A DNA stretch of 64,000 nucleotides from the NCBI RefSeq assembly GCF_041659645.1, contig NZ_JBAZXX010000001.1:131066-195065 (forward strand). The letters are read 5' to 3'. This DNA comes from Hyphomicrobium sp. Its GTDB lineage: Bacteria; Pseudomonadota; Alphaproteobacteria; Rhizobiales; Hyphomicrobiaceae. Below, piece by piece: positions 10,096 to 28,366 of this stretch. The translations under genes and the position numbers were made by a program. The first letter of the stretch is position 1, and the number at the start of each line of letters is the position of its first letter. The notes below the pieces were generated by a model. The model ran no database searches and had not been told where the DNA came from. It was given only the letters and a program-made list of their open reading frames with translations.

Positions 10096-10121
10096 AACGA
10101 TAGCGGTGTTGACTTGGTTCC
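10096..10121 (-). promoter_or_regulatory. sigma-EcfG-type promoter (GGAAC-N17-CGTT) facing the PilZ gene
   Basis: Exact motif on the minus strand. Confidence 0.65.
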
Positions 10122-10152
10122 GCTAGTCGGGCCGTTTAAGCTTTTTTGCCAA

Positions 10153-10178
10153 GGAACTGCCCGTGATCAGTCGACGTT
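10153..10178 (+). promoter_or_regulatory. sigma-EcfG-type promoter (GGAAC-N17-CGTT)
   Basis: Exact motif 33 nt upstream of ATG 10212. Confidence 0.75.
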
Positions 10179-10211
10179 CAGTCTCTACCGTCACCGCACG
10201 GAGTATAGGCC

Positions 10212-10721
10212 ATGAGTTATGTTGAACAGAGCCTTGGCGACAACGAAACGGTCCATTCCATAGCTGCGTACCCTACTGGCCGTTTCGCTCTTGCGTGGAT
10301 GGTGTTGATCGCCGGATTGGTAGGAGGTCTCGCCGCTACGTTATACGAGCATACTCTTATAGGCGGGCTCTTCGCGTTGTGTGCGGTCGCGGCGTTCTGT
10401 TGGATACTCTACAGGCCCTGGACCACAGAGATCGCGGTTACAAATTTACGCCTCATCTATAAGCGCGGCTTCTTTCAACGCCGTGCAAACGATCTCCAGC
10501 TTTCTTCGATTGAAGAAGTTCGCCTGCGCCAAAGTTTTTGGGGTAGAATTTTCAATTTCGGGCATGTGGAGTTATACGGAACTGGCGTCGCCGACCTAAA
10601 GCTTCCTGCGATTAATGATCCCGTCGCTTTTCAAAAATCCATCCAAGAAGCGCTGGGCGCAGACAAGCAAGAGGCTGAACTTCCTGGTCAACTCGTTATG
10701 CCAAGCGCCAAAGCGTCCTGA
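10212..10721 (+). CDS. Membrane protein with bacterial PH domain (bPH_2-like)
   Basis: Two TM segments, TEIAVTNLRLIYKRG and IEEVRLRQSFWGRIFNFG motifs; GGAG RBS. Confidence 0.85.
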   Translation: MSYVEQSLGDNETVHSIAAYPTGRFALAWMVLIAGLVGGLAATLYEHTLIGGLFALCAVAAFCWILYRPWTTEIAVTNLRLIYKRGFFQRRANDLQLSSIEEVRLRQSFWGRIFNFGHVELYGTGVADLKLPAINDPVAFQKSIQEALGADKQEAELPGQLVMPSAKAS

Positions 10722-10786
10722 CTGTACGGCAATCAAAAATCTGCATACCTATATTCGCTCAAGCATCTGAGCGGATATGTCGACAC

Positions 10787-11455
10787 ACGTGCGGTAAGTT
10801 CACACAACACTCTTCATGGCGAGACGTTCACGCGTTCTCTCAGCCACTCGTGCTGACAGGTGGGCCGGACGAGCTTACCGTCTCAACCCCGATGCGCTTC
10901 GCCAACATCATTCGGCTGAACGAAGCGGGCCAACGTGAAGTCGTCTCCATGCGTTGGGGCTTCGCTGGCAAAGGAGACGCCAATTCCATTCGACCGAAGC
11001 ACATGCACGCGCGGTCTGAAACAATCGATCGCCTGCCGACGTTCGCCAATGCCTTCACGCAGGGTCGCGGTATACTTGTAGTCCACACATTCAATGAGGG
11101 CGAAGAGTTATCTAACGGCAAGACCAAGCAATGGATGATCACGCCAAACGACGAGAAGCCGATTGCGATTGCGGTGATTTGCGAAAAGTGGACGAACGGC
11201 GCTGAAACACTGGACACGTTCATTCAGGTGACGACGCTAGCCAATGCTCTGATTTCAACGATCACCGACAGAATGCCTGCGATACTTCAACCGGAAGATT
11301 GGGCGACGTGGCTTGGCGAAAGGGAAGGTGGTTCTGCGGACGTGAAGACAGTTCTTCGGACATACGAGGATGGCGGCGGCTGGACGATGACCGAACAGGC
11401 GCCCACGAGGAGGTCGAAAGCCCAAAAGCCCGATCCACAGCCGGGTTTGTTTTAG
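10787..11455 (+). CDS. SRAP (SOS response-associated peptidase, HMCES/YedK) family; ACG in the start-codon position
   Basis: In frame ACG-TGC-GGT-AAG-TTC-ACA-CAA = (M)CGKFTQ; MRWGF, FNEG and DRMPAIL motifs; may be a pseudogene. Confidence 0.8.
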   Translation, partial: TCGKFTQHSSWRDVHAFSQPLVLTGGPDELTVSTPMRFANIIRLNEAGQREVVSMRWGFAGKGDANSIRPKHMHARSETIDRLPTFANAFTQGRGILVVHTFNEGEELSNGKTKQWMITPNDEKPIAIAVICEKWTNGAETLDTFIQVTTLANALISTITDRMPAILQPEDWATWLGEREGGSADVKTVLRTYEDGGGWTMTEQAPTRRSKAQKPDPQPGLF

Positions 11456-11512
11456 TCGGACAAAAGATGGCGGTTGCTCAGCAATTATCGAAGCAACCGC
11501 CAAGCATGGCTA

Positions 11513-11770
11513 TTAGAAGCCTATCCAGACACCGCGACGCCAGTATCCGCGACCTTCATGCTCGCGCCAACGGTAACGATGTGCCTCCGCTTCACGCCAG
11601 CGCCAATCGTCGGGATACACCGTAACGCCAAATTCTGGACGATAGACGTGGCGCTCACGAACGTGCCAGCAATCGCCGTCTTCGTTGCAAACGATTTCGG
11701 CTGAAGCGGTAGTAGCGGTAAGCGCAAGGACGCTAGCCGCAGCCAGCGCGCACTTCACAAGAAGCTTCAT
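11513..11770 (-). CDS. Small secreted Cys/Trp/Arg-rich protein
   Basis: Signal peptide ending ASA; CNEDGDCWH motif; GAGAG RBS; upstream EcfG motif. Confidence 0.8.
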   Translation of the reverse strand: MKLLVKCALAAASVLALTATTASAEIVCNEDGDCWHVRERHVYRPEFGVTVYPDDWRWREAEAHRYRWREHEGRGYWRRGVWIGF

Positions 11771-11840
11771 ATCCGTCTCTCCTCGGATGTTTCGTGTTCG
11801 GCGCGTAGCTGCGATGCGCTAAGCCTCGAACCGCCATTTC

Positions 11841-11866
11841 AACGGAGCAAAGAGACGTTCAGTTCC
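11841..11866 (-). promoter_or_regulatory. sigma-EcfG-type promoter (GGAAC-N17-CGTT)
   Basis: Exact motif about 70 nt upstream of the 11770 start. Confidence 0.75.
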
Positions 11867-11909
11867 GCTAAATCGGTGTCTGAATATTCATTCAGCCTTG
11901 GAGCGAAGT

Positions 11910-12095
11910 ATGCCCATTGACCAGACACGGATATTCGCAATCATCCGCGAAATCGAGCAGACACCGCACGACGAGTTGAAAGACATGGACCGCGAGCTTT
12001 TGCTGTCGATTAGACAAACGCTCCAAGAGCACAAAAGGGAAGTCGATAAAGTGCTGTTGCGTCTGGCGTTCGTGGACGAGCAGCAGTTGAACTAG
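11910..12095 (+). CDS. Small helical protein, unknown family (copy A)
   Basis: GGAG RBS; homologous to ORFs at 17734, 31885, 33426 and 33639. Confidence 0.75.
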   Translation: MPIDQTRIFAIIREIEQTPHDELKDMDRELLLSIRQTLQEHKREVDKVLLRLAFVDEQQLN

Positions 12096-12226
12096 AACGT
12101 TCCGCTTTTCGGCCGCCAGATAATCACGCCAATTGCAGCGACCACGATAATCCAGAGAACGGATTCTTTTCCACTTGGTTCGAGACCGCCATAGTCGGGG
12201 GATTTCTCGTAGCCGGATGACATGAG

Positions 12227-12571
12227 TCATTTGCTTTGCGATTTTCGATACGCATCGATCATCTCTTTCGTCACGTCCGCCGCCGAGCAGTAAACGGTCC
12301 AGCCTCCGGCCCTATCGTGTGCGCTGCGCTTACCGCATCTATGACCGGCTCTATCTGTATCGCTCGGGCACCCGCATGGCCCTGGACCGCCGGCTCGATA
12401 GGCAGCGATGGATGCCGCAATGATAGCTGTCACGATAGCCGCGTCAGTGAGAATTTCTTCGGTGCGATCTGAAGGATGTGCTGGTGGCGGCGCAAGGCTA
12501 TCCGCGTATGCGGGGAGGCATAACAGAATAGTACACGCGAGCCCGGCAACACTTGAAAATCGGAAGAACAC
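12227..12571 (-). CDS. Small secreted Cys-rich hypothetical protein
   Basis: Signal peptide; CGCP...RCGKRSA...YC pattern. Confidence 0.7.
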   Translation of the reverse strand: MFFRFSSVAGLACTILLCLPAYADSLAPPPAHPSDRTEEILTDAAIVTAIIAASIAAYRAGGPGPCGCPSDTDRAGHRCGKRSAHDRAGGWTVYCSAADVTKEMIDAYRKSQSK

Positions 12572-12666
12572 GCAACCCCCATCGTCCGAGCGAGCGTTCG
12601 CCTCATCTTCGGTATAAGGTTCAAGTTGCGCGAGAATTTGCGGCCTGTCTAGTCCTGCGTTCTCGC

Positions 12667-12810
12667 ACCATCCTTCGGCTGGAAGATTGGGCGACGTGGC
12701 TTCGAGAAGCGAACACTTCCGTGGCCGACGTGCAGGCGGTTCTTCGCACGTATTACGACGGCGGCAAGTGGACGGTGACTGATCGAACGCCCACGAGAAA
12801 GCCCGCGACC
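12667..12810 (+). pseudogene. SRAP C-terminal fragment
   Basis: ILRLEDWATWL...DVQAVLRTYYDGGKW matches the C-terminus of the 10787 copy. Confidence 0.8.
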
Positions 12811-13068
12811 TACCTCACAAAGGGGATACGGAGCCTGATTATTCGACCCGCCACCACGCCAGATACCCAGGATGCAATGCCGAAACAGACATATCAGGCG
12901 GGTTCGGCGCGTCAGCGTCGTCCAGATAGATTTTCCAGGTGCAGCTCCAATTGAAAGCCGCCCCAACTTATTCTCCCGGCCCGGTTTAAACGCGTCTCGC
13001 GCCCCGGCTCAACTCACAAACGATGTCAGAGCCTTGCCCGATGTCGCCGAGCCCCTAGATTTCCGGTC

Positions 13069-13728
13069 ATGTGCAACTTGTATTCGCAGACCCGGAATGT
13101 CGAAGCCATCCGGCGGCTGTTCAAGGTCAGCCACAACCGCACGATATCAATTGAACCGCAGCCCGCGATCTTCCCCGGCTGGAATGGCAGCGTTGTCCGT
13201 AAGGCCGAGGACGGCGAGCGTGAGCTTGTGACGATGTCATGGGGCTTCGTGCTGTTGCAGCCCGGCAAGGCCCCGCGCCGCGTCACCAACGTCAGGGACG
13301 ACAAGATTCTGACCTCGCGCTTCTGGAAGCCGAGCTTCGAGGCCCGGCGGTGTCTCGTGCCCGCGTCGAGCTATTGCGAGCCGGATAGCGGCAAGCCAGC
13401 CCAATGGCACTGGTTCGCCCTCGATGGCGACGATGACCGGCGGCTATTCGCGTTCCCGGGCATCTGGCAGCCCTGGAACGGTCCGGTGAAGAAAGATGGC
13501 CCTAACGTCGAGCTGGACGTCTACAGCTTCATGACGACGGTGCCGAACGCACTCACGGACTCGATCAATCACGAGCGGATGCCGGTGCTGTTATCTGAGG
13601 AAGCCGACTTCGAGACGTGGCTGTCAGGATCACCGGCTAATGCCTTCGCGCTCGCCAGGAGCTTTGACCCTGCGCAGATGCGGATAGTGCAAAGCGGCTT
13701 AGAAAAGAAAGACCTGTTGGCCGCCTGA
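13069..13728 (+). CDS. SRAP family protein (intact)
   Basis: MCNLY N-terminus (Cys2), WGF, SYCEP Glu and HERMP His. Confidence 0.95.
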   Translation: MCNLYSQTRNVEAIRRLFKVSHNRTISIEPQPAIFPGWNGSVVRKAEDGERELVTMSWGFVLLQPGKAPRRVTNVRDDKILTSRFWKPSFEARRCLVPASSYCEPDSGKPAQWHWFALDGDDDRRLFAFPGIWQPWNGPVKKDGPNVELDVYSFMTTVPNALTDSINHERMPVLLSEEADFETWLSGSPANAFALARSFDPAQMRIVQSGLEKKDLLAA

Positions 13729-13813
13729 TTTCTGGTCGGCGCGGCGACAGCCGCGAAAGTACGGTCATGCTGCGGTGCCGTAATGGGCCTTCGATGATCG
13801 CGGCGTGCCTTCG

Positions 13814-15043
13814 TCAGCGGTCACACGAATATGCTTGGGAGCAACGGACGTAGTCGCCCTTGATTGCAAAATTTGGAGTACTGAACTGCAGTGCGTTCGT
13901 GCCGATGGACTTTAACTGTACGTGCTGCTTCTCCGGCTCGTAGTCCTTAGTTCTACAAGCCATATCCAATTCCATCGGGGCACCGACTTTATCGACGGTT
14001 TCTGTCGTGCAACGGAAAGCCTCATAGAGCAAATCGACCTCATTCCCGCAAATTCCGATCATCTCCGATTGACGCCGCGTCACGTTATCCAAACCCTCGG
14101 CGGTCTCGATCTTACAAGCTTCCGCGGTATGCGCCCAAGTGCCGATCAAATTTGCAAAGGGCACGCTGTTTGCTGAATTGTCTTCCAGTCCGTCCTTTGA
14201 ATGGTCTTTGCCTGTTGCATCGAGCAACGTGAATTTTCGCGATACGAGAACGTTTCCGTTCACAACCAAATCCAACTGCCACTCGCCCAAATGATCCATT
14301 GTTTGCGGCCCGTTGAATTCGGAAAAAAGAATGCGCGTTCCAGAATCCGAGCGGCGGTAAATCCATGGCGACTTAATGTCTTCGTAGCCGGTGCCTCCTT
14401 CGGCCACTTCGAAAGGCCGCTCGGTCGCGTAATTGACGATGAGCGATTCATTGCGGCGAAGAGGCGGAATTAGAAGCTCATAGCCGACGATGAGCCCATC
14501 CTCTTTCACCACTTTGTCTACCGGCACCATCCGGTAATTCATGTGATAGCTGCGAACTTTCGCGTTCTCGGAGTCTTTGGTTTTTATTCCTTCGAAGTTT
14601 TTGCTCGTTGGCAAAAAACGCCCGAAATTTGTGACAACAAGATCAACGAGCCTGCCGCTTTCAGTTCGCACCGAAAATGTTCGAGGTAGCGTATCCGAGG
14701 GAACGTCGCTATCTACTCGTTCGATACCTTCGGATTCCTCAGGGCCAGCTTCATTGCAAGTCCATTCCGAAAGCAGGACATAGACGTCTTTTTGCGCTAT
14801 CCCGCCTCGGGTTCCGTGCAAATTGCCTTTGGCAAACGCCCCGGTGGCGGAGTTCACTTTCTGCGTCACATAAAAAGACCAGCCCGTTCCAATGTGGCTG
14901 TCGCCGGTCCATTGCGGATCGATTGCCATGGGGGATGGCGCGCTGAGTATTCTCGCGTTGCTGTCTTTCGGAAGGCAAAGAGAACCGGCAGAGCAAGTGC
15001 CATACGTCCCAATGAGCGCCAGGATAGTAAGAGCGGCTTTCAC
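13814..15043 (-). CDS. Secreted hypothetical protein
   Basis: Long ORF; signal peptide from GTG 15043 (VKAALTILALIGTYGTCSA); no family recognised. Confidence 0.65.
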   Translation of the reverse strand: MKAALTILALIGTYGTCSAGSLCLPKDSNARILSAPSPMAIDPQWTGDSHIGTGWSFYVTQKVNSATGAFAKGNLHGTRGGIAQKDVYVLLSEWTCNEAGPEESEGIERVDSDVPSDTLPRTFSVRTESGRLVDLVVTNFGRFLPTSKNFEGIKTKDSENAKVRSYHMNYRMVPVDKVVKEDGLIVGYELLIPPLRRNESLIVNYATERPFEVAEGGTGYEDIKSPWIYRRSDSGTRILFSEFNGPQTMDHLGEWQLDLVVNGNVLVSRKFTLLDATGKDHSKDGLEDNSANSVPFANLIGTWAHTAEACKIETAEGLDNVTRRQSEMIGICGNEVDLLYEAFRCTTETVDKVGAPMELDMACRTKDYEPEKQHVQLKSIGTNALQFSTPNFAIKGDYVRCSQAYSCDR

Positions 15044-15624
15044 GACACCCCCTATAATTCTCCATCTGAACTTGTCCAACTTTGCACAGACACGTTTCGC
15101 GCGTGCAATGGGGCGGATCATATGATTTGAAGAAAGATGAATTCTGATCGCTGTTCTTAAGCCAATCAGATCACCCGCACTGACACCTCAGCGTGCCACC
15201 TTCTAGACATGGCTGTTCGGCACACCGGCTGAGCAAGGTTCAGCAGTTTAGGCGGGGCAGTTGCTTATCATTGGCACGGCCGATGCGTTGACACACTATG
15301 GACCATCTGCGAAACGCCTTTCCCTTTAAGTATTCCAAGCGCCTAAACGTCGTTTTGGCGATGGTTGCGATGGTTCTGATCGCGCCGATTGCCGTGCTTC
15401 CTGTGCCGCTGTTTCGAGATCTATTTACCGAGCTTCTCAAAATCGTACGGTCTGGCGGAAACTTACCGTCCTAATCCGAAGGGGAGAGTGGTTGTCGCGC
15501 GATATTTTCGAACCTCAGTCGACGATTTCATCGCCGAGATTGCTAATCGCATTCGCGCGGCACTCTGACGGGAACGAGGTACGTAGATTCGACCTTGTTC
15601 GAAAGCTCTCTGACGACGTTACAC

Positions 15625-15698
15625 GCGCGGGCTTCGACTCCGCACGGATACGTATCGTGCAAAGCAGATTTGAGAAGAAAGATTTGCGGGCTACCTAA
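15625..15698 (+). pseudogene. SRAP extreme C-terminal remnant
   Basis: RAGFDSARIRIVQSRFEKKDLRAT* versus ARSFDPAQMRIVQSGLEKKDLLAA* of the 13069 gene; DNA is also similar. Confidence 0.65.
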
Positions 15699-15754
15699 GC
15701 TGTAGCGCACGCGATGATCTAACAGGAGCTATTTGCGCACTAGAACGATTGGGA

Positions 15755-16429
15755 TCAGAATTTATAACTGACACCAGCGCGCACACCTTGTTCGATGACA
15801 TCGGTGGGATAATTCCAGCCGCTATCCGTCTTCGGATTATCGGTGAAGCGGCCAAAGTCCGTGTAGCGATATTCCACGCGTGTCGTCCAGTGAGGCGACC
15901 AAGCGTATTCGACACCACCGCCCGCGGTCCAGCCAGCCTGAATGTTCGTCGAATTATCGTGGGTTGAACCTTCGTCGTAAGTCGATTGAATGTCGCCAAT
16001 CGCCAAACCGCCGGTGCCATAAATCAAGGCCCGTCCCATCGAGTAGCCGATGCGAGCCCGTAGAGATCCCTGGACGTTGATGTTGGTCTCGATGATACCA
16101 GCGAATTCAGAATCTATCTTGCCGCTAAAATTTGCGGCTTCGATGTCGCCTTCAAATCCTAAGATGATCGAGTTGAAAACATAATTGTAACCGGCATGCA
16201 CACCTCCGATTGCGCCATCGGGACCGGATGATCCTCGCCAATCAGAATTCCCACCAGATTTGCTAACGTCATGGCTGTGAACTTCGCCCCACGAATAACC
16301 GGCTTGCGCACCGACGTAAGCGCCCGCCCACGAAAATGGCGAACTAGCATCGTAGTCATCCGCAGAGCCCGCAAAAGCGGGAGTTCCTATGCACATGCCG
16401 ACTACTGCGATCCAGGTGCTGATTCTCAT
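15755..16429 (-). CDS. Outer-membrane protein, Omp25/RopB-like 8-stranded barrel
   Basis: WAGAYVGAQAGY, GWTAGGGVEY and RVEYRYTDFG motifs; terminal YKF. Confidence 0.9.
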   Translation of the reverse strand: MRISTWIAVVGMCIGTPAFAGSADDYDASSPFSWAGAYVGAQAGYSWGEVHSHDVSKSGGNSDWRGSSGPDGAIGGVHAGYNYVFNSIILGFEGDIEAANFSGKIDSEFAGIIETNINVQGSLRARIGYSMGRALIYGTGGLAIGDIQSTYDEGSTHDNSTNIQAGWTAGGGVEYAWSPHWTTRVEYRYTDFGRFTDNPKTDSGWNYPTDVIEQGVRAGVSYKF

Positions 16430-16524
16430 TGGACGACCTCTTTGATGGTGAGGGTGGATCCCACCATTCGTCATGGGCGTCTAGATCGATCCAGCAACAG
16501 TCCGCAGAATTAGCGGTATACGTC

Positions 16525-16710
16525 CTAAATTTCTACGATTTCGCGAAAGGGGACTGTCAGATCGAAACACAGATCTCTGAATGGATGGGCGAGTTTGTGC
16601 AACGCGTCACGATCAAGGGCAGTGGCGACGTTTTCTATGTCCTGGATCAGCCGGGCGCCGTGCTTTGCAGCACGCTTTCGAGGATTTGTTGATTTCCGAG
16701 GTTTCGCCAT
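16525..16710 (-). CDS. Small hypothetical protein
   Basis: Plausible ORF with basic N-terminus, divergent from 16919. Confidence 0.4.
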   Translation of the reverse strand: MAKPRKSTNPRKRAAKHGARLIQDIENVATALDRDALHKLAHPFRDLCFDLTVPFREIVEI

Positions 16711-16918
16711 CTCCGGCCCCTGCGGCGTAATTCGCGATGCAATGGCTGTATTTTATAGCTGAGTCTGTGAATGTCGATCTCCTGGTAAAATAGGAAATCT
16801 AGGCCCGAGGTCTTAAGTGTGAGCGCACTTGCTTCGGGAGCAAGGGGGCGGAAGTTGGGGTAATGACTAAAATCACTGTCGCCGAACTCCGTGCTATGAT
16901 TGGCGCAAAGCAGGAGGA

Positions 16919-17134
16919 ATGGACGTGCCACTAATCAGTCGACTGAAGGAGCGAAGGGAAAAGCTCCAAGCGCAGCTGGACCGATGGATCGCCCGAGGTT
17001 TCCGGGGAGGCGGCAAAGGCACATCGAACGATGCAACTTCGAAAGAAACAGCTGACAAGGTTTCGGAGATCGCTGATCTCAGCCGCACCATCGCCGAGCA
17101 GGAGACGAAGAAAAAAGATGTCGAAGGTCCTTAA
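16919..17134 (+). CDS. Small coiled-coil hypothetical protein
   Basis: Strong GGAGG RBS; charged helical composition. Confidence 0.6.
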   Translation: MDVPLISRLKERREKLQAQLDRWIARGFRGGGKGTSNDATSKETADKVSEIADLSRTIAEQETKKKDVEGP

Positions 17135-17167
17135 GGGTGAAAAGCCCCCCGCCGACGTCATCCACTT

Positions 17168-17428
17168 CGCCGACTGCTCTACGTCGCGATGACGAGGGCC
17201 AAGGACGACTTGCATCTGATCGTGCCGCAGCGCTTCTTTACGCACGGACAGTCTGCAAAAGGCGATCGACACGTTTATGCGTCGAGGACAAGGTCTATTC
17301 CAAACGCGTTGATCGACCACTTTGAAAGTGCCGCTTGGCCGATAGCAGCTGGTGGCAATTCCACAGCGAGGGCGGGAAGTTTTTCTCGGATCGATGTGGC
17401 GACCAAGATGAAACAGAGATGGGAGTAG
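17168..17428 (+). pseudogene. UvrD/Rep helicase C-terminal fragment
   Basis: In frame RRLLYVAMTRAKDDLHL (helicase motif VI); rest of the gene absent. Confidence 0.85.
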
Positions 17429-17733
17429 TGGAGATCATGATTGGCGAGAATGGTGATCGGATTGTCAGGGCCAATTGACGGATCTTCGCTCGATTCCATT
17501 CCGGATTTGATTAATTTTGGGCTGCGTCGAGATGCAAGCCAGCCACAATTATTGTCATATCATCCGTAGACGTATTGTCTGAATCTGATTCATGTTTTTT
17601 GTCGGTAAGCGAAGGCGTTCGCTCTCCCCGGCACCTTGATGGATGATAGAAACGTGACGCTTTTCCCGACCCAAAGGAAATCGCGTTGAAATTTTGATGA
17701 CATTGTTCCACTCAACAATATTGGTGAGCTCTC

Positions 17734-18042
17734 ATGTCAGAAAATCATTTCGCCACTTCGCACGCGCAATCTGATGATCTTGAATCGATGATGGAAGAAG
17801 CGCGACTGGTCGATTGTCTTTTGTCGGGCGATCAGACGTTACAGCCGGTATCGACTGCTCTAAGCTCTGACCCGGCGATCCTGCTCATATTGTGCCGTGC
17901 GCTCGAGAAAGAAGCCCAAAATAAACTTGATACGTTTAAACGCGAGCATCTGCTCACGATCCACAAATGCCTGGCGGGACTCAAGGAAGATATCGAACGC
18001 CGTCTGGTTGGTTGTTTCGAACCCTCGTTAGCATCGACCTAA
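17734..18042 (+). CDS. Small helical protein family member with N-terminal extension (copy E)
   Basis: LCRALE..L...REHLL.I...L..LK..IE..L matches copies A-D. Confidence 0.6.
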   Translation: MSENHFATSHAQSDDLESMMEEARLVDCLLSGDQTLQPVSTALSSDPAILLILCRALEKEAQNKLDTFKREHLLTIHKCLAGLKEDIERRLVGCFEPSLAST

Positions 18043-18269
18043 TGATGCCGCGCGGGAGCGGCGCGCGCAATCTGTGCTCCTAAAACTGGTCGGACTGGCA
18101 CCCGCTAGCCCTCAGGAGCTTCCTCTTTTCTGAAATAGCTGAAGCACTCTTACGAACGCGTGGGGCCAAATCATTCGTGACGAACGACCTCGTCAATACG
18201 TCCAATGGGTAGCTGACGGTACGACGGGCCTCGAGACGAACGTCAACAGCCGTTGCGAGCCGGAAGGCT

Positions 18270-18794
18270 CTACGGATTGGCGGAGGCTGCTGTCCAAGTT
18301 CGATAATCCGCGTCAGACACTTTCGGTATCGCCTTCACGAACGCGGCAAGGTGCCAAAGCTGATCGTCGGTGAGTCCGGCCTTCCCGAAGCTCGGCATGC
18401 CGGTCATCCGAATTCCGTTTTTGATGACCCAGAAGATTCCCGCAGCACTCCGCTCGTTGGCGACATCCTTCAGGTCGGGGGGATCGGGATTTAGGCCTTC
18501 GGAGAATTTCGACCATTTTACTCCTGGGCCGCCGTGACAGTGCACACAGCCGGCGTTTGCAAAGTCACGTGCCCCTTGCTGAATGACCGTCTGATCGTCG
18601 AGCGGGAAAGGGGCGTTGCCGCCTTCATCTTCGTGCCGCGCGATAGAGGCGTTACGCGTGCGAATGAGCGCCCATTTGACAGGAACCGGATCGCCCACTG
18701 CCGCGGCGACGTCGTAGAAACCGGCGAAAAAATATACTCCGGCAAACACTGCAAGGATAATTGCCAACGCGCCAACAGCAGCAAGGAGTCGCAT
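18270..18794 (-). CDS. Membrane-anchored monoheme cytochrome c
   Basis: CVHCH, IKNGIRMTGMP, N-terminal TM segment, GGAGG RBS. Confidence 0.9.
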   Translation of the reverse strand: MRLLAAVGALAIILAVFAGVYFFAGFYDVAAAVGDPVPVKWALIRTRNASIARHEDEGGNAPFPLDDQTVIQQGARDFANAGCVHCHGGPGVKWSKFSEGLNPDPPDLKDVANERSAAGIFWVIKNGIRMTGMPSFGKAGLTDDQLWHLAAFVKAIPKVSDADYRTWTAASANP

Positions 18795-19665: not shown

Positions 19666-19703
19666 CTTTTCGCCACTCCGATAGGGCTGTTGGCGTGATC
19701 CGA

Positions 19704-20045
19704 TCAATTCGCAAATCGCATGGCGCGGATTTTAGCCCATGCCATCGCGTTCGCTTCGTACTCGGCCATGCCCTCGTCGATATAGAGTTTGCGGAGCTCT
19801 TGAAATAGTTTCTTCCGGGTTTGGACTTTCACGCGCTCATTGAGTCGCGCGGAATAGGGAACGATGAGGCCCATTGGTCGCTCGTCTGAGAGACGCACGC
19901 ACAGATGCCAACTGCTCTGAGAATACCAGATTCCGTCCCGGCGGATTCGAAATTGGTTCCGGATCAACCATCGGAATTGGCCCAGTCTGGGGGGACTGGT
20001 TGGTTGCGACGGTAAATGTTCTGACTGCGCTAGTAAGCTATTCAA
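19704..20045 (-). CDS. Hypothetical protein
   Basis: ORF only; C-terminal half looks helical. Confidence 0.3.
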   Translation of the reverse strand: MNSLLAQSEHLPSQPTSPPRLGQFRWLIRNQFRIRRDGIWYSQSSWHLCVRLSDERPMGLIVPYSARLNERVKVQTRKKLFQELRKLYIDEGMAEYEANAMAWAKIRAMRFAN

Positions 20046-20380
20046 TCATCATCACACATGAATACGGCGCGAAAAGTCAGAATCTTGCGGGATACCAGGC
20101 CGGCGTGTGCTCGGAACCAGCCGGGTTTTTGGCAACCTGGCGGCTCGATCGGCGCTTTTTGCCTGTAATGAATAACGTTATCCGCGCCCGGAAGTGGCCG
20201 GGCTGGCGGTCAGCTGTAGCGCGGTTTCGATCGTCGTGCGTTTTCGACGAGGCGCGTTCGGAAGAGGCCAAGTGAATTTGATCTGCGATCATCGGAAGCG
20301 TCGCGACATATTCCCATTGTCAAAGGGCCAGTATAGTGACCGCATCGTAAAAGCGCACAGCGCGACAGCGGAAAGAAGTT

Positions 20381-20989
20381 TTGGAAGTGAGAAGGTCGTC
20401 AAAGATTAGTTTTTTCAGTCGTTGCAGTCTCATCCTCTTCGCCTTGTGTTGTACGCTACACGCCAACGCGCTCCAACCATCGAACGCGGCGAATATTGAG
20501 CCTGGACAACCCACAGCTGCAAAGAAGAAACCCAAGAGCCTAAAGAAGGACAAGGCGGCTCATACGGAAGCTCCAGCCTCCTCGAGGGCCACGACGATTC
20601 CTGATGACTACAAACTCAACATGCTCATTCGTACGACCATTATTGCTGTGAGTCAGGCGAACAAAACCGGCAACTATTCGGTGCTGCGAGATCTGGGTTC
20701 GCCGAATTTTCAAATCGCCAACAGCGAAGCAAAACTCACGGACGCGTTTGCTGAACAACGCAACGCTCACATTGATTTGTCGCCGGTATTATTTTTCCAA
20801 CCAAAGCTTATCCGCAAACCGGAAATTGATGGCGCTGGTATGCTGCGTCTCACTGGCTTTGTCGCGACCCAACCGAACCAAGTAAATTTCGATCTTGCGT
20901 TTGAGCATTTTCAGGGCGAGTGGCGCTTTTTTGGATTGAGTGTCGGCACGCAGCACGCCACCCCGCCATCAGTGTCTGCTCAGCGTTGA
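20381..20989 (+). CDS. Exported hypothetical protein upstream of the adhesin
   Basis: Signal peptide; ANKTGNYSVLRDLGSPNFQ and DLSPVL motifs. Confidence 0.75.
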   Translation: MEVRRSSKISFFSRCSLILFALCCTLHANALQPSNAANIEPGQPTAAKKKPKSLKKDKAAHTEAPASSRATTIPDDYKLNMLIRTTIIAVSQANKTGNYSVLRDLGSPNFQIANSEAKLTDAFAEQRNAHIDLSPVLFFQPKLIRKPEIDGAGMLRLTGFVATQPNQVNFDLAFEHFQGEWRFFGLSVGTQHATPPSVSAQR

Positions 20990-21125
20990 CTTCCCGTCTG
21001 TAGCAAGTTGGACACGTGAAAAGTTCTTCCTCTGCAGTCATGCTAGCGTCGTCCCGCTTTCACAGAAGTCCTACCAAAGTAGATTTTGGGGGCCATTCCC
21101 GTCGTGTTGCGTAAGAGGGTGTCTG

Positions 21126-23579
21126 ATGTCGCGTCGTAAGCCGGGGCCTGACTTTTGTTGTCCTAAATATCGTACTTCAGCGTCGCCGCGGCGGCAGCGG
21201 AATCCAAAGCAAACGACAGTTGCGTTTGTCGCACTGTTAGCGGTCGCCGCGCAGCCCGCTTGGGCCGGTTCAAGCTCGCCGAATACGCCGCCCGCGGCGC
21301 CTGGGGCATACGTCACCAACACCGGCACGCTTTCGACCGTCGGCTCCGGCGGTTGTTCACAGCAATATAATCCGGCCATTGCAACAGATACCGATAACCA
21401 ATTGATCGCTCAGGCGACACAGCTGTCGGCTGATATCGCGGGTACGGCGGCCAAAATCACGGCCTTCACGGCAAACGGGGTTGCCGCAGACGCAAAGGCT
21501 GCTGCGGCTGCCACGAAGGCAGCCGCCGAGGCAGACGAAGCAGCCGGTCTTGCCGAAGCAGCGGTCGGCGTCGCCACACCTTTAGACGCTGGTCCTGCAG
21601 CACCCGGCCTCGCCGCTGCCGGGGTCGGAGCCGGCATCGCATCGGGAGCCGACGCGGCGATTGCGACAGCGGAGACCGCATCGAGCGTAGCCTACGCGGC
21701 GCAGGTCGCAGGTTTAGGGTTCGACGTCACCAAAAACACCGCGGCGGGCGTGGCATTGGGATACTCCAACGACGCGCAAAATCTCAGGAACTACGTCGCT
21801 GGCGCCCATCTCCCAAATTGCAATCAATCGTACAACGGCACCATCAGCGTCAATGTCCCCAATGGGCAGCCCGCCCTCTTGGCGACTGGGGACGCGTACA
21901 TCGACGGAAATCTTAATACTACGGGAGACGCTAACGTCGGCGGCAACATCACCGCCAGCCAGCTCAAAGCGACCCAGGGAATTTCGGCGGACGGTGGCGC
22001 AATTACCATCGGCAATCCGGACCTCACCACCTACCAGAGCGGCGTCACGATTGGCGGCGGTGCGCTCGCCGGTGCTGGTACAGGCGGTGCGCAAGCTTTC
22101 ACGGGCGATGTTTCTGCCATTGCGATAGGCAACGGCGCCAGCGCGGCTATGGCGAACGGAACAGCGCTTGGTAATGGCGCTGACGCGTCGGATGTCGGCG
22201 GCACAGCACTCGGCGCGGGGGCGAGCAGTTCGACCGGTATCGCAGCTGGCTTCAATGCGATGACGACAACTGGTGTTTCGATTGGCAATGGCGCCGGCGT
22301 CGCTGGCGATGCGGGCGTCGCGGTTGGCACGGATGCACGCGGCAAAGACATCACGGATACGGCGGTCGGTAATAATTCGAGGGTGAATGCAGCGAGCGGC
22401 ACGGCCTTTGGCGCCAACACCAACATCACCTCGAACTCGGATAATGCCGTTGCAATCGGTGAAGGCACGACGATCGGCGGCGCCAATGCCGTTGGTTCCG
22501 ATAATGTCACCGCCGTTGGTCAGGGCATCGCAATTCTCGATGACATCAACAACGCTGTCGCCTTCGGTCAGGGTGCGAACGTTGCCGCCGACGGCGGTGT
22601 CGCAATCGGTCAAGCGGCGGCCGCGAACAATATTGACTCGATTGCTATCGGCCAGGGCGTCGCGACAAACGGCGCTGCAGCTGTCGGCGTAGGTCTCGGG
22701 GCCAACGCCGCCGCGGATCAGAGCGTCGCCGTCGGCAACAGTGCCAACGCTGTCGGATTTCAATCCGTCGCCGTGGGCACAACTGCAGTCGCCGGAAATA
22801 CCGGCGCGGTTGCGGTCGGGTCCGATACCAACGGTGACGGGCTCGGCGCTGTGGCTCTAGCGGTCGGATCTGTTGCTGTCGGCGACGCGGCTTCGGTCAG
22901 CACCAATGCCATTGCCGTTGGAACGAGCGCCTTCGCCGCCGGCGCCGGCGCTATCGCTATTGGCGAAGAAACAACCGCAATTAACGCCGTTGCCATAGGC
23001 AGCAGCGCTCATGCTGCCAACGGCGGTGCAGCCTACGGCAATGGGGCAACGGCAACCGGGGTCAATTCGACTGCGGTCGGAGCCAATGCGTCGGCGACGC
23101 CTGACGGGTCGGCGGCTTTCGGTACCGGCGCAGTTGCCTCACTCAATAATCAGCAGGTGTTTGGCACGTCGTCCAACACTTATACGATGCCCGGCATCAC
23201 GTCGAACACAAGTGTCGAAAGGCAAAGCGGCCCGCTTCAGCTCGTTACCTCGGACGCTAACGGCGACCTAGCGTCCGACCACGGTGCAACCTTCAGGACG
23301 ATCGCACACCTGCAGGCCGGTATCGCGGTATCGCTCGCCGCGGAAGCGCCGCCGCTTACGTCATCGCAACAATTTGCCATGCGACTTGGCTGGGGCGATT
23401 TCGAAGGGAACGCCAATGCCGTCGCGTGGAGTGCAATAGGTGTCATCTGTCGCGGCTGCATCACCGCGGGCGATCGGATCACAGTTGACGGCTCCGTCGG
23501 CGCGGGATTTTCCGAATACAAGACTTACTATGCCAGCAACGTCGTCGGCGGCCGCGCTGGCATATCTTGGGGTTGGTGA
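21126..23579 (+). CDS. YadA-like trimeric autotransporter adhesin
   Basis: Signal ending QPAWA; many AxAxGxxA Hep/Hag head repeats; C-terminal beta anchor ending in W; start uncertain. Confidence 0.9.
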   Translation: MSRRKPGPDFCCPKYRTSASPRRQRNPKQTTVAFVALLAVAAQPAWAGSSSPNTPPAAPGAYVTNTGTLSTVGSGGCSQQYNPAIATDTDNQLIAQATQLSADIAGTAAKITAFTANGVAADAKAAAAATKAAAEADEAAGLAEAAVGVATPLDAGPAAPGLAAAGVGAGIASGADAAIATAETASSVAYAAQVAGLGFDVTKNTAAGVALGYSNDAQNLRNYVAGAHLPNCNQSYNGTISVNVPNGQPALLATGDAYIDGNLNTTGDANVGGNITASQLKATQGISADGGAITIGNPDLTTYQSGVTIGGGALAGAGTGGAQAFTGDVSAIAIGNGASAAMANGTALGNGADASDVGGTALGAGASSSTGIAAGFNAMTTTGVSIGNGAGVAGDAGVAVGTDARGKDITDTAVGNNSRVNAASGTAFGANTNITSNSDNAVAIGEGTTIGGANAVGSDNVTAVGQGIAILDDINNAVAFGQGANVAADGGVAIGQAAAANNIDSIAIGQGVATNGAAAVGVGLGANAAADQSVAVGNSANAVGFQSVAVGTTAVAGNTGAVAVGSDTNGDGLGAVALAVGSVAVGDAASVSTNAIAVGTSAFAAGAGAIAIGEETTAINAVAIGSSAHAANGGAAYGNGATATGVNSTAVGANASATPDGSAAFGTGAVASLNNQQVFGTSSNTYTMPGITSNTSVERQSGPLQLVTSDANGDLASDHGATFRTIAHLQAGIAVSLAAEAPPLTSSQQFAMRLGWGDFEGNANAVAWSAIGVICRGCITAGDRITVDGSVGAGFSEYKTYYASNVVGGRAGISWGW

Positions 23580-23621
23580 GAATGATGGCGTGCGTCCACG
23601 TCCAAACGATAGGAGCCAGAA

Positions 23622-23939
23622 ATGTTGCGTAAGCTCGAAATGATTTTGATTGCTTATCTATCCATAAGCGCGTCCGGCACTGCATTTGCGGGAGGGACCA
23701 ATACGACGGTAGCTGCCCTTACTACAATGCAACAGGACACGAAAACGCATGCGGGAACGCCCCCGAACGAGGCAACGAGCATTCCGTCACATGTCGGAGC
23801 CGTCGTTTTCTCTGGAGGTGCCTTGTCTGCTTTGGGGCCCATCAATTCCGCGTTAGGAGGCGCAGCTATCGCTGCTGCGGCGAGTCTTAAACCTTCATCT
23901 AATTTGCAGGCTAGAGCACCGATCGCTAATTCGAATTGA
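23622..23939 (+). CDS. Small exported hypothetical protein
   Basis: AGGAG RBS and signal peptide; directly downstream of the adhesin. Confidence 0.5.
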   Translation: MLRKLEMILIAYLSISASGTAFAGGTNTTVAALTTMQQDTKTHAGTPPNEATSIPSHVGAVVFSGGALSALGPINSALGGAAIAAAASLKPSSNLQARAPIANSN

Positions 23940-24159
23940 TTCTAATTCGTGTTCCCTCTCACTCTAGTGGACTGCAAGCCGTCGGGCAGAATCAAACATA
24001 TGACGGTATGCGTTCTGACAACGCGGACAACCCATTGAAACGTCATCACCGGAACGTCTCGCGAACAGTCAGAACCCACCGTCCAATCGTTATCGCGCTG
24101 CTGACCGCGGTGAAACAGATCCTTTGGATCGTCGCCGCCTTAAGGGCTATTCGGAAGAA

Positions 24160-24244
24160 CCGGGATGCGGACGATCTCCAGCGGGATATCCTCGGGTGAA
24201 ACAACGAAATCGATGCAACCACAAGCGATCGCACTATCCGGCAT
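24160..24244 (-). pseudogene. CheB methylesterase C-terminal remnant
   Basis: MPDSAIACGCIDFVVSPEDI. Confidence 0.65.
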
Positions 24245-24342
24245 ATACCTAAGACGCGGCGTGCCTCCTGGTGGACGCCCACCTGGATGAGCGGACTGGA
24301 GTTGCTGTCGAGGCTCCATCACACGGGCCGCCGGCTCCCTCA

Positions 24343-24498
24343 ATGACGATGACGGGTGGTAGTGACGTCCAGATTGCGGCCCAAGCCATGCAAGCAGGAG
24401 CTTCGGATTTCGTCGAGAAGCCGATCGGCCGGCATAATCTGTTGAACAGCATCGCGCACGGGCTCGAGCTATCACTAACCTGCGACAGCATATGGTAA
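24343..24498 (+). pseudogene. FixJ-like receiver-domain remnant
   Basis: TGGSDVQIAAQAMQAGASDFVEKP. Confidence 0.7.
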
Positions 24499-24693
24499 GC
24501 TCGAGCTTAGGTGTGCGACGGCCACGCTGAGGCGGCTGGGGGTTGCGCTTTGAATGTTCAATAGGGCGGTACGCTCCTAAGAGCGGCGCAGCTACCGGTC
24601 CGCTACAACTCCCTTTGAGCCAGTTGGGCTGAACCCTCTCCTGACTGTGGGATTGGACGGCGAGACTGATCTGCGGGAGCCGACGGACGATTA

Positions 24694-25530
24694 TTAAGCC
24701 GTTTGTCCGAGTTTTACGTCGGCAAAGAATGAGACGGCGGAATGGCTAGCTTCTTTAGCGTCATACATCGCCATATCGGCGCTTTGCAGCAATTCAGTTG
24801 AAGTTGAACCATCAAGGGGGGCTGAAGCAACTCCGATGGCTACTCCAATGAAGTGGAGACGTGAATCTATTTCGATGCCGTCAGATAATGCTTGGACAAA
24901 GCGGAGCGCTACACTCTGCTCCTGCTTACGTGAGGGGAGGGAAGGAGCAAGAACTGCAAACTCATCTCCACCGAGCCGGGCAACCAAATCCTCAGACCGA
25001 GCGGCGGCTTTGAACCGAAGAGCGACGACCTTAAGCACTTCGTCACCACACGCATGACCGAACTGGTCATTGATTGCTTTGAATCCATTGAGATCGAGCA
25101 AGTAGACCGTCGGGTGTGCGCTTCGATCCAGAGACACTTGCAGACAGCGAAGGAATTCTCGCCGATTGGGTAATCCCGTCAGCGCATCCGCCATCGCGAG
25201 CGAGCGCTGCTCCTGCAATTCAGATTCCGCGAGCACCCGTTTCGTGCGATCCTGCCGTTCTTCAAGAAGGCGTCGCCAAATGAATATGGTCGCGCATAGC
25301 GCGAACAGTAAGCCAAGCGCAAACAGTTCTTCGCTGCATATCGTACGCTCGCGAGGGGTAATATCGCTCCATAGCTCTTCCAGATCGTAGGCTAGGGCAA
25401 GTGTGACCCCGATCGCCATAGTGGTGATCGTCAGCGATAAATCAAATGCGCTCGTGAGAGGATGACGCTTTATCGTCTGAACGAAAGTAGCGAATTTTAC
25501 CACGGGAAACCTCAGGAAATAGCTCGGCAT
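24694..25530 (-). CDS. Membrane diguanylate cyclase
   Basis: Two TM segments, DLNGFKAINDQFGH, RSED I-site five residues before GGDEF. Confidence 0.92.
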   Translation of the reverse strand: MPSYFLRFPVVKFATFVQTIKRHPLTSAFDLSLTITTMAIGVTLALAYDLEELWSDITPRERTICSEELFALGLLFALCATIFIWRRLLEERQDRTKRVLAESELQEQRSLAMADALTGLPNRREFLRCLQVSLDRSAHPTVYLLDLNGFKAINDQFGHACGDEVLKVVALRFKAAARSEDLVARLGGDEFAVLAPSLPSRKQEQSVALRFVQALSDGIEIDSRLHFIGVAIGVASAPLDGSTSTELLQSADMAMYDAKEASHSAVSFFADVKLGQTA

Positions 25531-25743
25531 GGTAGTAAGGGATGGTTGAGATCTCCGTAAAAGCGATTGTCAAATTGTAGTATCCGCTGCGGATGTCTCC
25601 GTGGAACCGCCGCGCCGGATCTTGCCCCGATTCCATTGGAAACCACGTCGGATCTATGGGTGATGGCCGCCCCGGATCGCTCAAAAACAAACTTGTGCCG
25701 CATATACAAGTCATTACTCCCCAAAAATCATGGAGCATTGGTT

Positions 25744-26274
25744 TTGAAGCACCGTATCCACGTATGCGGCCTGCGTAACGTCTCGAAAACTTCTGAAGCG
25801 ATTGGCGCCGGTCATCTGGTGAGCGCTATCGAAGCCCACTCATTCCCAAAAACGCCTCGGAACATCCTGCGCGGCCGCCATCTCAGACTTGATATGGACG
25901 ACATCGCACAAGCGCAGCCCGACATGGTGCTGCCGTCGGAGAGGCATGTTCTCGACCTGCTGGACTTCGTCCAAAGCTGGGATCAGAAGTCTCCGTTGCT
26001 CGTTCACTGCTTCGCCGGAATGAGCCGCTCCACGGCCTGCGCCTATATCGCAATATGTGCGCTCAACCCCCAGGCCGACGAAGAACGGATTGGGCAATCG
26101 ATGCGCAGATTGTCAGCGACGGCCACTCCCAACCGCAGGCTTGTAGCGCTTGCAGATGATATCCTCGGACGCGACGGGCGAATGATCGCCGCGGTTAGCG
26201 ACATGCACGCGTGCTTCAACGATGTGGCTACGCCTTTCAGTGTGGGCCCGAGCGACTTCCTGGAAACCGCTTAA
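25744..26274 (+). CDS. Protein-tyrosine phosphatase-like protein
   Basis: HCFAGMSRS (CX5R); GGAG RBS 8 nt before TTG 25744. Confidence 0.88.
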   Translation: MKHRIHVCGLRNVSKTSEAIGAGHLVSAIEAHSFPKTPRNILRGRHLRLDMDDIAQAQPDMVLPSERHVLDLLDFVQSWDQKSPLLVHCFAGMSRSTACAYIAICALNPQADEERIGQSMRRLSATATPNRRLVALADDILGRDGRMIAAVSDMHACFNDVATPFSVGPSDFLETA

Positions 26275-26608
26275 CTGAGCCGCTGGCTCGACCGCGAACG
26301 TTCTAGTCGGCATAGTCATTGTGTCTAACGAGAGCTGGTGTGTCGGGGGGCAGTCGGGACCAAGGAATCCGGCGCACGTAACACAACATGGGGCGCTCGC
26401 CCTGGACGTTTGCCTTATCTCGGCAACGGATGCACGCGTTCCTTCGATCTAATGATAAGAGGTTGCGACAAAGCGGACTTGGTTCCCGGTGGTTCCGTTC
26501 GCGGACTATAGTACTGTCTTCCACGCCTCGACTTTTGGGCCGCAGGGTGTGCAACTACACGGTGCCCAGGGGCTCGGGATGGAGACGGCGCCATTTCGTC
26601 GTTTTTGC

Positions 26609-26633
26609 GGAACTCTCTGAGACGGGCGGCGTT
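26609..26633 (+). promoter_or_regulatory. sigma-EcfG-type promoter (GGAAC-N16-CGTT)
   Basis: Exact motif 27 nt upstream of ATG 26661. Confidence 0.75.
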
Positions 26634-26660
26634 AGTGGGCTTTCAAACAATGGGCTTTCG

Positions 26661-27506
26661 ATGGAAATCAACGTAGGTTGTACGCTGCGCTATCAGATGG
26701 CATCGGCGACCGGATTCGTGTTTCAGATAGAGGCCGCGAAGGCGGACAGCCAGTTCGTCAAGAGCGAGCTGCTTACTATCCCGGCAGGTCCAGATCCTTC
26801 GGGGTATACGTCGTTCGTGGATGCCATCACATCAACACGTAAGGTGCGTGCGATGCTCGGACCTGGCGTGGCCGAGATCAACTATCGCGCCACCGTCGAT
26901 GTCGACACCACGGGATTCGATCCCAACAGCGTCTATGAATTTGATTTCGTGAACCTGCCGATGGACTCTCTCGAATACGTCGCGCCGAGCCGATATTGCC
27001 CATCGGATACTTTTACGCAGTTTGCGAATGAGGTGTTTGGCGGCATCCAGCGTGGGCACGTTCGGATACAGGCCATCAGCGATTGGGTATATTCTCACAT
27101 AGGCTATCAGAGTGGCGCTACGGGGCCGTCCTCTACCGCGGTGGATGTGTTTCATAGCGGCCAAGGGGTGTGTCGTGATTTCGCTCACCTCGGTATTTCT
27201 TTATGCCGGGCGCTCGGTATCCCGGCGCGTTATGCAAGCGTTTATGCCGACGGACTCGTGCCGCAGGACTTCCATGCGGTCTTCCAAGCCTATCTCAATG
27301 GGCCGACGGGCGGCAGATGGTTTACGTTCGATCCGACGCGCATGAGTTCATCGGATTTCGTTGTTCGAATCGCTGCCGGCAGGGATGCGGCCGACGTGGC
27401 CTTCGCGTGGCCGCAGGGCGAAGTTGCGTTTGAGGCGCCACAGGTGTTCGTCGAGGCTATGGGCCGTCAGGATCGGACGCGCAGCTCACTCGCCATCGGA
27501 AATTAG
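26661..27506 (+). CDS. Transglutaminase-like protein
   Basis: GVCRDFAHL, DFHA and FDPT triad motifs. Confidence 0.92.
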   Translation: MEINVGCTLRYQMASATGFVFQIEAAKADSQFVKSELLTIPAGPDPSGYTSFVDAITSTRKVRAMLGPGVAEINYRATVDVDTTGFDPNSVYEFDFVNLPMDSLEYVAPSRYCPSDTFTQFANEVFGGIQRGHVRIQAISDWVYSHIGYQSGATGPSSTAVDVFHSGQGVCRDFAHLGISLCRALGIPARYASVYADGLVPQDFHAVFQAYLNGPTGGRWFTFDPTRMSSSDFVVRIAAGRDAADVAFAWPQGEVAFEAPQVFVEAMGRQDRTRSSLAIGN

Positions 27507-27624
27507 CGGCGGCATTTCGTTGATGCTATGCGGGAAAGAACTCGCGTTCGATTGACGATAAACATTCATTACTTTTGAGCATATTTGCCGACGGGAGCGC
27601 GAGAAAACCGCCCCTAAGAGGCTC

Positions 27625-27651
27625 GGCCTCCGGCATTTTCGCTCGGAGGCC
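27625..27651. terminator. Hairpin between convergent genes (possible bidirectional terminator)
   Basis: GGCCTCCG-N11-CGGAGGCC. Confidence 0.45.
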
Positions 27652-27744
27652 TAGCTGCAAATTGATAGGTGCTGAAATACCGATCGCCGTGCGCGCCGAA
27701 CCTTGTCCCAGACTTAGCCGACGCTTTTCGAAGCGGAAACGCGC

Positions 27745-27885
27745 TTAGTCCAATGACGGCTTCGGATCGTCGATCGGAATCGGAGGGGGCTGCGGTGGGT
27801 CTTTGGGTTCGGGAGGTAACGGCGGGAGCTGTCCCGGTTCCTGTGTGGGATGGGGAATCGTCGGTGGATCGTCCTCATTGCCCAT
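27745..27885 (-). CDS. Small proline-rich peptide
   Basis: MGNEDDPPTIPHPTQEPGQLPPLPPEPKDPPQPPP; directly downstream of 27897. Confidence 0.45.
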   Translation of the reverse strand: MGNEDDPPTIPHPTQEPGQLPPLPPEPKDPPQPPPIPIDDPKPSLD

Positions 27886-27896
27886 CTGGAAATCTT

Positions 27897-28175
27897 TCAT
27901 GCACGACGCCAGAGAATGATGGTCACGAAGGCTCCCGCGATGGCGGCGACGTAAAGAAGTAACGTCGGTAAGAGTTCGAGAATGACGCCGATATGGAAAC
28001 CCATGAAGGAGCCGGCGATGCCGACCAAGGCAAACGTGATATCGCCAGCGCCGGTTGCTCCGGCAATTTGACGACCGAGCCAGCTTCGGCCCGCGCGGTT
28101 GAGGAAAAGGCCGACGATAATCCCGATCAGTACGAGGAGGATGAATGTGACGATGGCAGTCGTAAGAATGGGCAT
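27897..28175 (-). CDS. GlsB/YeaQ/YmgE-like stress membrane protein
   Basis: Three hydrophobic segments, GIAGSFMG motif; upstream near-consensus EcfG motif. Confidence 0.75.
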   Translation of the reverse strand: MPILTTAIVTFILLVLIGIIVGLFLNRAGRSWLGRQIAGATGAGDITFALVGIAGSFMGFHIGVILELLPTLLLYVAAIAGAFVTIILWRRA

Positions 28176-28211
28176 GGTGCGATCCTTTTGAGTATCTCTC
28201 CGGCCGAATAC

Positions 28212-28237
28212 AACGCTGCGGAGCCAACGATGGTTCG
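28212..28237 (-). promoter_or_regulatory. Near-consensus sigma-EcfG promoter (CGAAC-N17-CGTT)
   Basis: One mismatch; 36 nt upstream of the 28175 start. Confidence 0.55.
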
Positions 28238-28340
28238 GTGGGCTGGGATTTTCTTCGGGCGAGAGCCGTCAGCGCGAGGTTAGACGGAGCGTCGGCGGGT
28301 TCGATTGCTCGGCAAAATTCAGCTGGGTCGAGTGGGTGCA

Positions 28341-28366
28341 GGAACATCCGCGCCAGTTCCGGCGTT
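28341..28366 (+). promoter_or_regulatory. sigma-EcfG-type promoter (GGAAC-N17-CGTT)
   Basis: Exact motif 30 nt upstream of ATG 28397. Confidence 0.75.

Follow-up and report, generated by a model that had tools for sequence, protein, structure and literature searches.

The general stress response of Alphaproteobacteria is governed by a short chain of events in which stress leads to the phosphorylation of PhyR, NepR is captured and the sigma factor EcfG is released. The SigT regulon of Caulobacter and the RpoE2 regulon of Sinorhizobium rely on this same group of sigma factors and on the same promoter consensus, GGAAC-N16/17-CGTT, and CsbD-like and DUF1328 proteins abound among their members, along with further small stress proteins. 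Here we analyze six occurrences of this consensus, five exact and one carrying a single mismatch, located between positions 10096 and 28366 of a 64,000-nt stretch of Hyphomicrobium sp. DNA (hereafter, the window) on contig C1 of a 4.26 Mb assembly with 59.6% GC content. Their placement, their retention upstream of orthologous genes and the regulatory system encoded in the same genome make it very likely that the six sites are promoters of the EcfG sigma factor (ECF15; SigT/RpoE2) of this strain.

The EcfG regulon of Sphingomonas melonis Fr1 offers a direct term of comparison, since its GGAAC-N-(C)GTT promoters likewise lie mostly within about 100 bp of a start codon and its targets are likewise often small hypothetical, secreted or membrane proteins (PMC6599016). 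None of the six gene families of the window could be traced in the text of that work, from which PilZ and transglutaminase are absent, and a literature search for transglutaminase-like or PilZ proteins tied to EcfG returned nothing usable, an apparent mention of PhyR in PMC3235984 proving to be the word "Phyre". Our search of the literature also found no paper on the general stress regulon of Hyphomicrobium, a genus of methylotrophs and denitrifiers employed in water treatment, and the present analysis provides its first sequence-based map. The mechanism is textbook for Alphaproteobacteria; we extend a known alarm system to new genes, an incremental advance whose points of modest interest are three unnamed families of small proteins and the arrangement of promoter-gene units in variable DNA.

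Motif sites in the window

The motif, composed of a -35 box (GGAAC) and a -10 box (CGTT), was sought through a pattern search on both strands of the window, yielding the following sites:

10096-10121, - strand: exact site GGAAC-N17-CGTT, facing the PilZ-like gene with a 139-nt leader
10153-10178, + strand: exact site GGAAC-N17-CGTT, 34 nt 5' of the bPH gene, divergent from the 10096 site
11841-11866, - strand: exact site GGAAC-N17-CGTT, 71 nt 5' of the Cys/Trp-rich peptide gene
26609-26633, + strand: exact site GGAAC-N16-CGTT, 28 nt 5' of the transglutaminase-like gene
28212-28237, - strand: variant site CGAAC-N17-CGTT, 37 nt 5' of the 92-aa membrane protein gene
28341-28366, + strand: exact site GGAAC-N17-CGTT, 31 nt 5' of the 42-aa gene, divergent from the 28212 site

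The search recovers precisely the five exact sites listed in an earlier note on this DNA, all of them intergenic and oriented toward a start codon, together with the one-mismatch copy that it placed at 28212 (-). Long open reading frames (ORF) overlap the sites at 26609 and 28341, and these are upstream over-extensions, the orthologue alignments beginning with residue 1 at the ATG at 26661 and the ATG at 28397. Once true starts replace the over-extended ORFs, all six sites are intergenic, and the gap between the last T of CGTT and the ATG spans 28-139 nt across the six targets, in keeping with the 27-140 nt previously given. The two divergent pairs described in the note are also borne out, with -35 boxes at 10121 and 10153 (31 bp apart) and at 28237 and 28341 (103 bp apart). 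Since the spacer sequences differ among sites, they are not copies of a repeat.

The note had estimated that about one exact match should arise by chance in the window, a figure that dinucleotide-preserving shuffles of the window reproduce (1.22 exact matches expected, with at least five in 2 of 100 shuffles). Sites with one mismatch show no enrichment as a class (22 observed against 17.5 expected for N17 spacing, and 8 against 17.6 for N16), so it is by context alone that the site at 28212 (-) stands. When compared with a uniform placement of the 56 intergenic sites of the genome, the presence of five intergenic motifs within 18.3 kb is unusual (P(max≥5) = 0.004). Two further one-mismatch matches, GAAACAATCGAyCG...CCGACGTT at 11018-11043 (+) and 32433-32458 (+), are near-identical and lie within SRAP-like coding sequence; these are duplicated gene fragments, not promoters.

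Placement of the motif in the genome and the resident EcfG system

For the genome-wide scan recommended in the earlier note, gene coordinates were obtained with a home-made dicodon gene finder that works across the genome and miscalls the low-GC region of the window. It scored only one of the five window sites as positioned, and the genes of the window were therefore set by homology. The genome contains 90 exact sites, modestly above the approximately 66 expected from base composition. Their location departs much further from expectation: 55 of the 90 fall between genes, where 120 permuted motifs of the same composition place 14.0 ± 6.9 (~4-fold enrichment), and 38 are both intergenic and facing a start codon within 250 nt, against 5.4 ± 3.4 and a maximum of 17 for the same controls (~7-fold). 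Roughly four-fifths of the intergenic, well-oriented matches should thus be real.

Elsewhere in the genome, the genes lying behind exact motifs encode CsbD, Ku, LigD, DUF1328 and DUF4112 proteins, a low-affinity iron permease and an EgtB-like protein. The last of these combines DinB_2 and FGE-sulfatase domains, with its motif at C5:328547 (+), and suggests that ergothioneine synthesis is placed under general stress control, as with the TIGR03440 gene of S. melonis. Nine exact motifs are gathered in about 29 kb at C4:350114-379155, a second and denser cluster in which they precede the genes for CsbD, Ku, LigD, the low-affinity iron permease and several small unknown proteins, and which looks like a "stress island".

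The genome encodes the full regulatory system in duplicate. Two NepR matches exceed the Pfam cut-off, each adjoining a gene for an extracytoplasmic function (ECF) sigma factor and a PhyR gene, and both PhyR copies pass NCBIfam NF006623 (341 and 359 bits; cut-off 240). In the C4 module (C4:196505-204230) phyR and nepR-ecfG are divergent, with exact motifs at C4:203265 (-) before nepR-ecfG and at C4:203295 (+) before phyR, an arrangement with motifs on both sides that is the classic signature of autoregulation. A third exact motif in this module precedes the adjacent gene for a 1898-aa HAMP-repeat kinase. The C1 module (C1:538051-539745) is collinear and has only degenerate motifs upstream, GGAAC-N16-AGTT and GGAAC-N16-CATT.

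Under the proposed mechanism, PhyR phosphorylated under stress would bind the anti-sigma factor NepR, and EcfG, once freed, would read the -35 GGAAC and -10 CGTT boxes at a spacing of 16-17 nt. Transcription would then start a few nt past CGTT and generate mRNAs with short leaders, directing the synthesis of the bPH protein, the secreted Cys/Trp-rich peptide, the transglutaminase-like protein, the 92-aa and 42-aa membrane proteins and a now-frameshifted PilZ protein. Induction of the six genes by stress, through one or the other of the two EcfG paralogues, is a prediction of this mechanism.

Target genes and retention of their probable promoters

The genes faced by the six sites are the following:

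9665..9957, - strand: PilZ-like gene with a -1 frameshift; annotated as a 73-aa ORF (9736-9957), with the rest of the domain in another frame down to 9665
10212..10721, + strand: membrane protein of 169 aa with a bacterial PH domain, bPH_2 (PF03703, 6.5e-14, 52.4 bits, cut-off 22)
11513..11770, - strand: secreted protein of 85 aa from an unnamed family; signal peptide followed by IVCNEDGDCWH...YRWREHEGRGYW
26661..27506, + strand: transglutaminase-like protein of 281 aa, with N-terminal Bact_transglu_N_2 and Transglut_core
27897..28175, - strand: largely hydrophobic protein of 92 aa, probably with three membrane helices as judged from its sequence
28397..28525, + strand: protein of 42 aa whose one hydrophobic segment, at the N-terminus, probably spans the membrane; a genuine gene

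To footprint the promoters, each target protein was searched against 100 related genomes and the DNA upstream of its homologues was inspected. For five of the six targets, PilZ being the exception, orthologues have retained both the -35 and the -10 box in their upstream DNA, and permuted motifs yield only ~0.01-0.04 matches per gene set. Similarity to the orthologues detected by blastn does not extend beyond the coding sequence. Both boxes and the distance between them have thus been kept while the surrounding DNA diverged past alignment, the mark of selection on a promoter.

Of the ~60 genomes of the genus, only 2-28 have a given target, and the positions of the targets are not linked, in agreement with the accessory status that the earlier note attributed to the region. 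The GC content of the region is 52-58%, against 59.6% for the genome, and the neighboring genes include SRAP copies and genes for a GGDEF protein, a phosphatase, an outer-membrane barrel, a cytochrome c, a YadA-like protein and a sulfatase. The sole Rfam match in the window is a tRNA at 2500-2586.

The bPH gene is confined to a few genomes of the genus. Its orthologues in four of them (G015, G034, G014 and G032) carry an exact motif at -34 to -55 with unrelated spacers; a more distant homologue (G042) has an exact motif as well, and G049 has a version with one mismatch. The SRAP gene beside bPH (10786-11454) shares 78% DNA identity with the gene beside the G034 orthologue (L014 2602-3261), so that bPH and SRAP form a pair that has been conserved. 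Another SRAP gene is located at 13069-13728. The PilZ-like gene on the other side of the divergent pair matches the Pfam PilZ profile (PF07238) over positions 2-61 of 102, with a score of 18.7 bits that falls below the cut-off of 22.5. Alignment to an intact 99-aa orthologue (G055, 76%) reveals a 1-nt deletion near codon 62 that leaves the last third of the domain (9763-9665) out of frame, and the c-di-GMP (cyclic di-GMP)-binding motifs RxxxR and DxSxxG are both visible ahead of the frameshift. This lesion would correspond to either a pseudogene or an assembly error. An Rfam scan of the 139-nt PilZ leader found nothing.

The 85-aa secreted protein has a conserved core, IVCNxxGDCWH…YRWREHEGRGYW, and no Pfam or NCBIfam match. 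Its family occurs in 28 of 101 relatives, all from the same genus, and also in other families of the Hyphomicrobiales, and across the order the motif or a one-mismatch version of it nearly always accompanies the gene. Close orthologues (G001, G011, G060 and G057) have an exact motif at -51 to -71. Among distant relatives, those with an exact motif belong to unclassified alphaproteobacterial and Roseiarcus metagenome-assembled genomes and show it mostly at about -34 to -45, with one at -119, and those from Labrys, Rhizomicrobium and Beijerinckiaceae carry one-mismatch versions. A small unnamed family with this regulatory signature across several Hyphomicrobiales families constitutes a good candidate for functional work. 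A group of paralogues of this peptide (C4:279463 (-); L072, L077, L079-L082, L087 and L089) has, in place of GGAAC, a conserved GAAAC(C)-N16-(C/G)GTT element at -30 to -40, which might be read less strongly by EcfG or else serve a different ECF sigma factor.

The transglutaminase-like protein is well supported by its core domain (Transglut_core, PF01841, 6.7e-22, 78.3 bits, cut-off 23), and its N-terminal match to Bact_transglu_N_2 falls below the cut-off (23.9 bits; cut-off 27). A Cys residue is visible in a GVCRDFAH context when the sequence is read. An exact motif is found in two of five close orthologues, G003 (-25) and G017 (-39). The core-paralogue family has it at -31 to -40 in most of its inspected loci, and the overall figure is 16 of 23 homologous loci. 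Just 5' of this gene lie a GGDEF diguanylate cyclase gene (24694-25530, -) and a tyrosine/dual-specificity phosphatase-like gene (25744-26274, +), each without an EcfG motif of its own.

For the 92-aa protein, no match to PF04226 (YeaQ/YmgE, GlsB transglycosylase-associated) or any other Pfam family was found even at E≤10, and NCBIfam gave none. Some of its homologues with 70-77% identity are labelled YeaQ/YmgE or "transglycosylase" by JGI and NCBI, and the protein may be a distant YeaQ/YmgE relative. Its orthologues carry TGAAC-N16/17-CGTT in five cases and GAAAC in one, all at -27 to -31. The target names proposed in the earlier note therefore fare unevenly: bPH (6.5e-14) and the transglutaminase-like assignment (6.7e-22) hold, YeaQ/YmgE finds no PF04226 match, and PilZ is left with a frameshifted gene and a score below cut-off.

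The 42-aa protein, which the note had singled out as easily missed, has no match in Pfam or NCBIfam and appears as "hypothetical protein" in a few public records. Synonymous codon differences to orthologues outnumber non-synonymous ones (22:1, 20:4, 20:7 and 16:9), which establishes the ORF as a real gene, and 39 of 101 relatives have the family in full-length, stop-free form. In all four close orthologues (G049, G048, G033 and G003) an exact motif lies at -27 to -31, and neither its spacer nor its flanks can be aligned. The exact motif is mostly missing from a widespread paralogue family (…KIDLPGVKIEG), and the core paralogue in this genome (C1:415625-415744, -) is preceded by a hairpin resembling an intrinsic terminator and by a TTGACA-type promoter, with no EcfG motif. 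Among the 42-aa copies, the accessory copy of the window is the one predicted to be wired to stress.

In other genomes, whatever its location, each gene appears to have its own promoter with it, so that the window is best described as a stretch of variable DNA in which independent promoter-gene units have piled up locally. Tentatively, and with rather less confidence than we place in the promoters themselves, we put forward a broader model in which the general stress regulon of Hyphomicrobium grows through shuffled, self-contained units of a small gene and its own EcfG promoter, unlinked between strains and piling up in variable "stress islands" such as the window and C4:350-380 kb. Some accessory units would be stress-wired duplicates of core genes with housekeeping promoters, as exemplified by the 42-aa gene, and the 85-aa, 42-aa and 92-aa families could be new cell-envelope effectors of the general stress response. 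The analysis assigns a regulatory context to these three unnamed families of small envelope proteins and illustrates accessory DNA wired into a core stress circuit.

Alternative explanations and known regulons

Several observations weigh against reading all six sites as EcfG promoters, and they give some substance to the notion, somewhat unlikely in our estimation, that only part of the sites are functional, with 10096 (-) having arisen by chance or being a promoter in decay and 28212 (-), with its CGAAC box, weak or inactive. Chance should account for ~12-14 of the 55 intergenic matches, about a fifth to a quarter, so a lone unconserved site could be spurious. Comparison of the 55 intergenic with 33 coding sites yields no wider consensus around the nine core bases that is able to rank sites; the flanks display no more than a slight preference for G ahead of CGTT and for C ahead of GGAAC. 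With a 139-nt leader, a frameshifted target and no comparative support, 10096 (-) is the weakest of the six: the sole close PilZ orthologue (G055) has no motif upstream, and its upstream DNA is unrelated to that of the window. Against this, the site is intergenic and correctly oriented, and its divergent partner is a conserved promoter, an arrangement shared with nepR/phyR. The first base of the -35 box at 28212 is non-consensus, and one-mismatch sites are not enriched overall; nevertheless, NGAAC-N16/17-CGTT is found at the same position in six orthologues, and CGAAC-N17-CGTT precedes an EcfG-regulated gene of S. melonis (PMC6599016).

A different objection concerns the sigma factor. The genome has 11 sigma-70-family genes, of which about eight or nine, including most of the small ones, are ECF-type, and GGAAC-like -35 boxes are common among ECF sigma factors, so another ECF factor with a similar -35 box is conceivable. 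The motif might then be read by such a factor, or by the second EcfG paralogue alone in response to a distinct input, placing the genes in some other envelope or oxidative stress regulon outside PhyR control; the existence of two NepR-EcfG-PhyR modules, with only degenerate motifs at the C1 copy, leaves some room for this. We regard it as improbable. Exact motifs precede nepR-ecfG and phyR themselves, and ECF sigma factors typically autoregulate; the genome-wide target set, with CsbD, Ku, LigD, DUF1328 and the EgtB-like protein, fits published EcfG regulons; and the CGTT -10 box is a signature of EcfG in the cited literature (PMC6599016). The idea that all six arose by chance, or were copied from a dispersed repeat, is barely credible. 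The occasional shuffle of the window that attains five matches speaks for it, and against it stand the five exact sites all lying between genes and facing starts, the strong positional enrichment across the genome, and the boxes kept across orthologues with unalignable spacers and flanks. Genome-wide placement, orthologue retention and the permuted-motif controls effectively refute an origin by chance or from a repeat element. The attribution to EcfG made in the earlier note is hence upheld by the PhyR-NepR-EcfG system, by the motif before its own genes, and by the placement and retention of the sites.

The EcfG promoters proposed here belong to a regulatory architecture with clear precedents. 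As in Sphingopyxis granuli TFA (PMC7083833), Rhizobium etli (PMC3892343) and Methylobacterium extorquens (PMC4814048), this Hyphomicrobium strain has more than one copy of EcfG and NepR, and it likewise has one divergent phyR/nepR-ecfG module with the consensus motif on both sides. Unlike those paralogous systems, this genome duplicates all three components, PhyR included. With the regulon of S. melonis Fr1, which was set by transcriptomes and mutants whereas that of Hyphomicrobium is drawn from sequence, it has in common Ku and a TIGR03440 (EgtB-type) protein as targets (PMC6599016).

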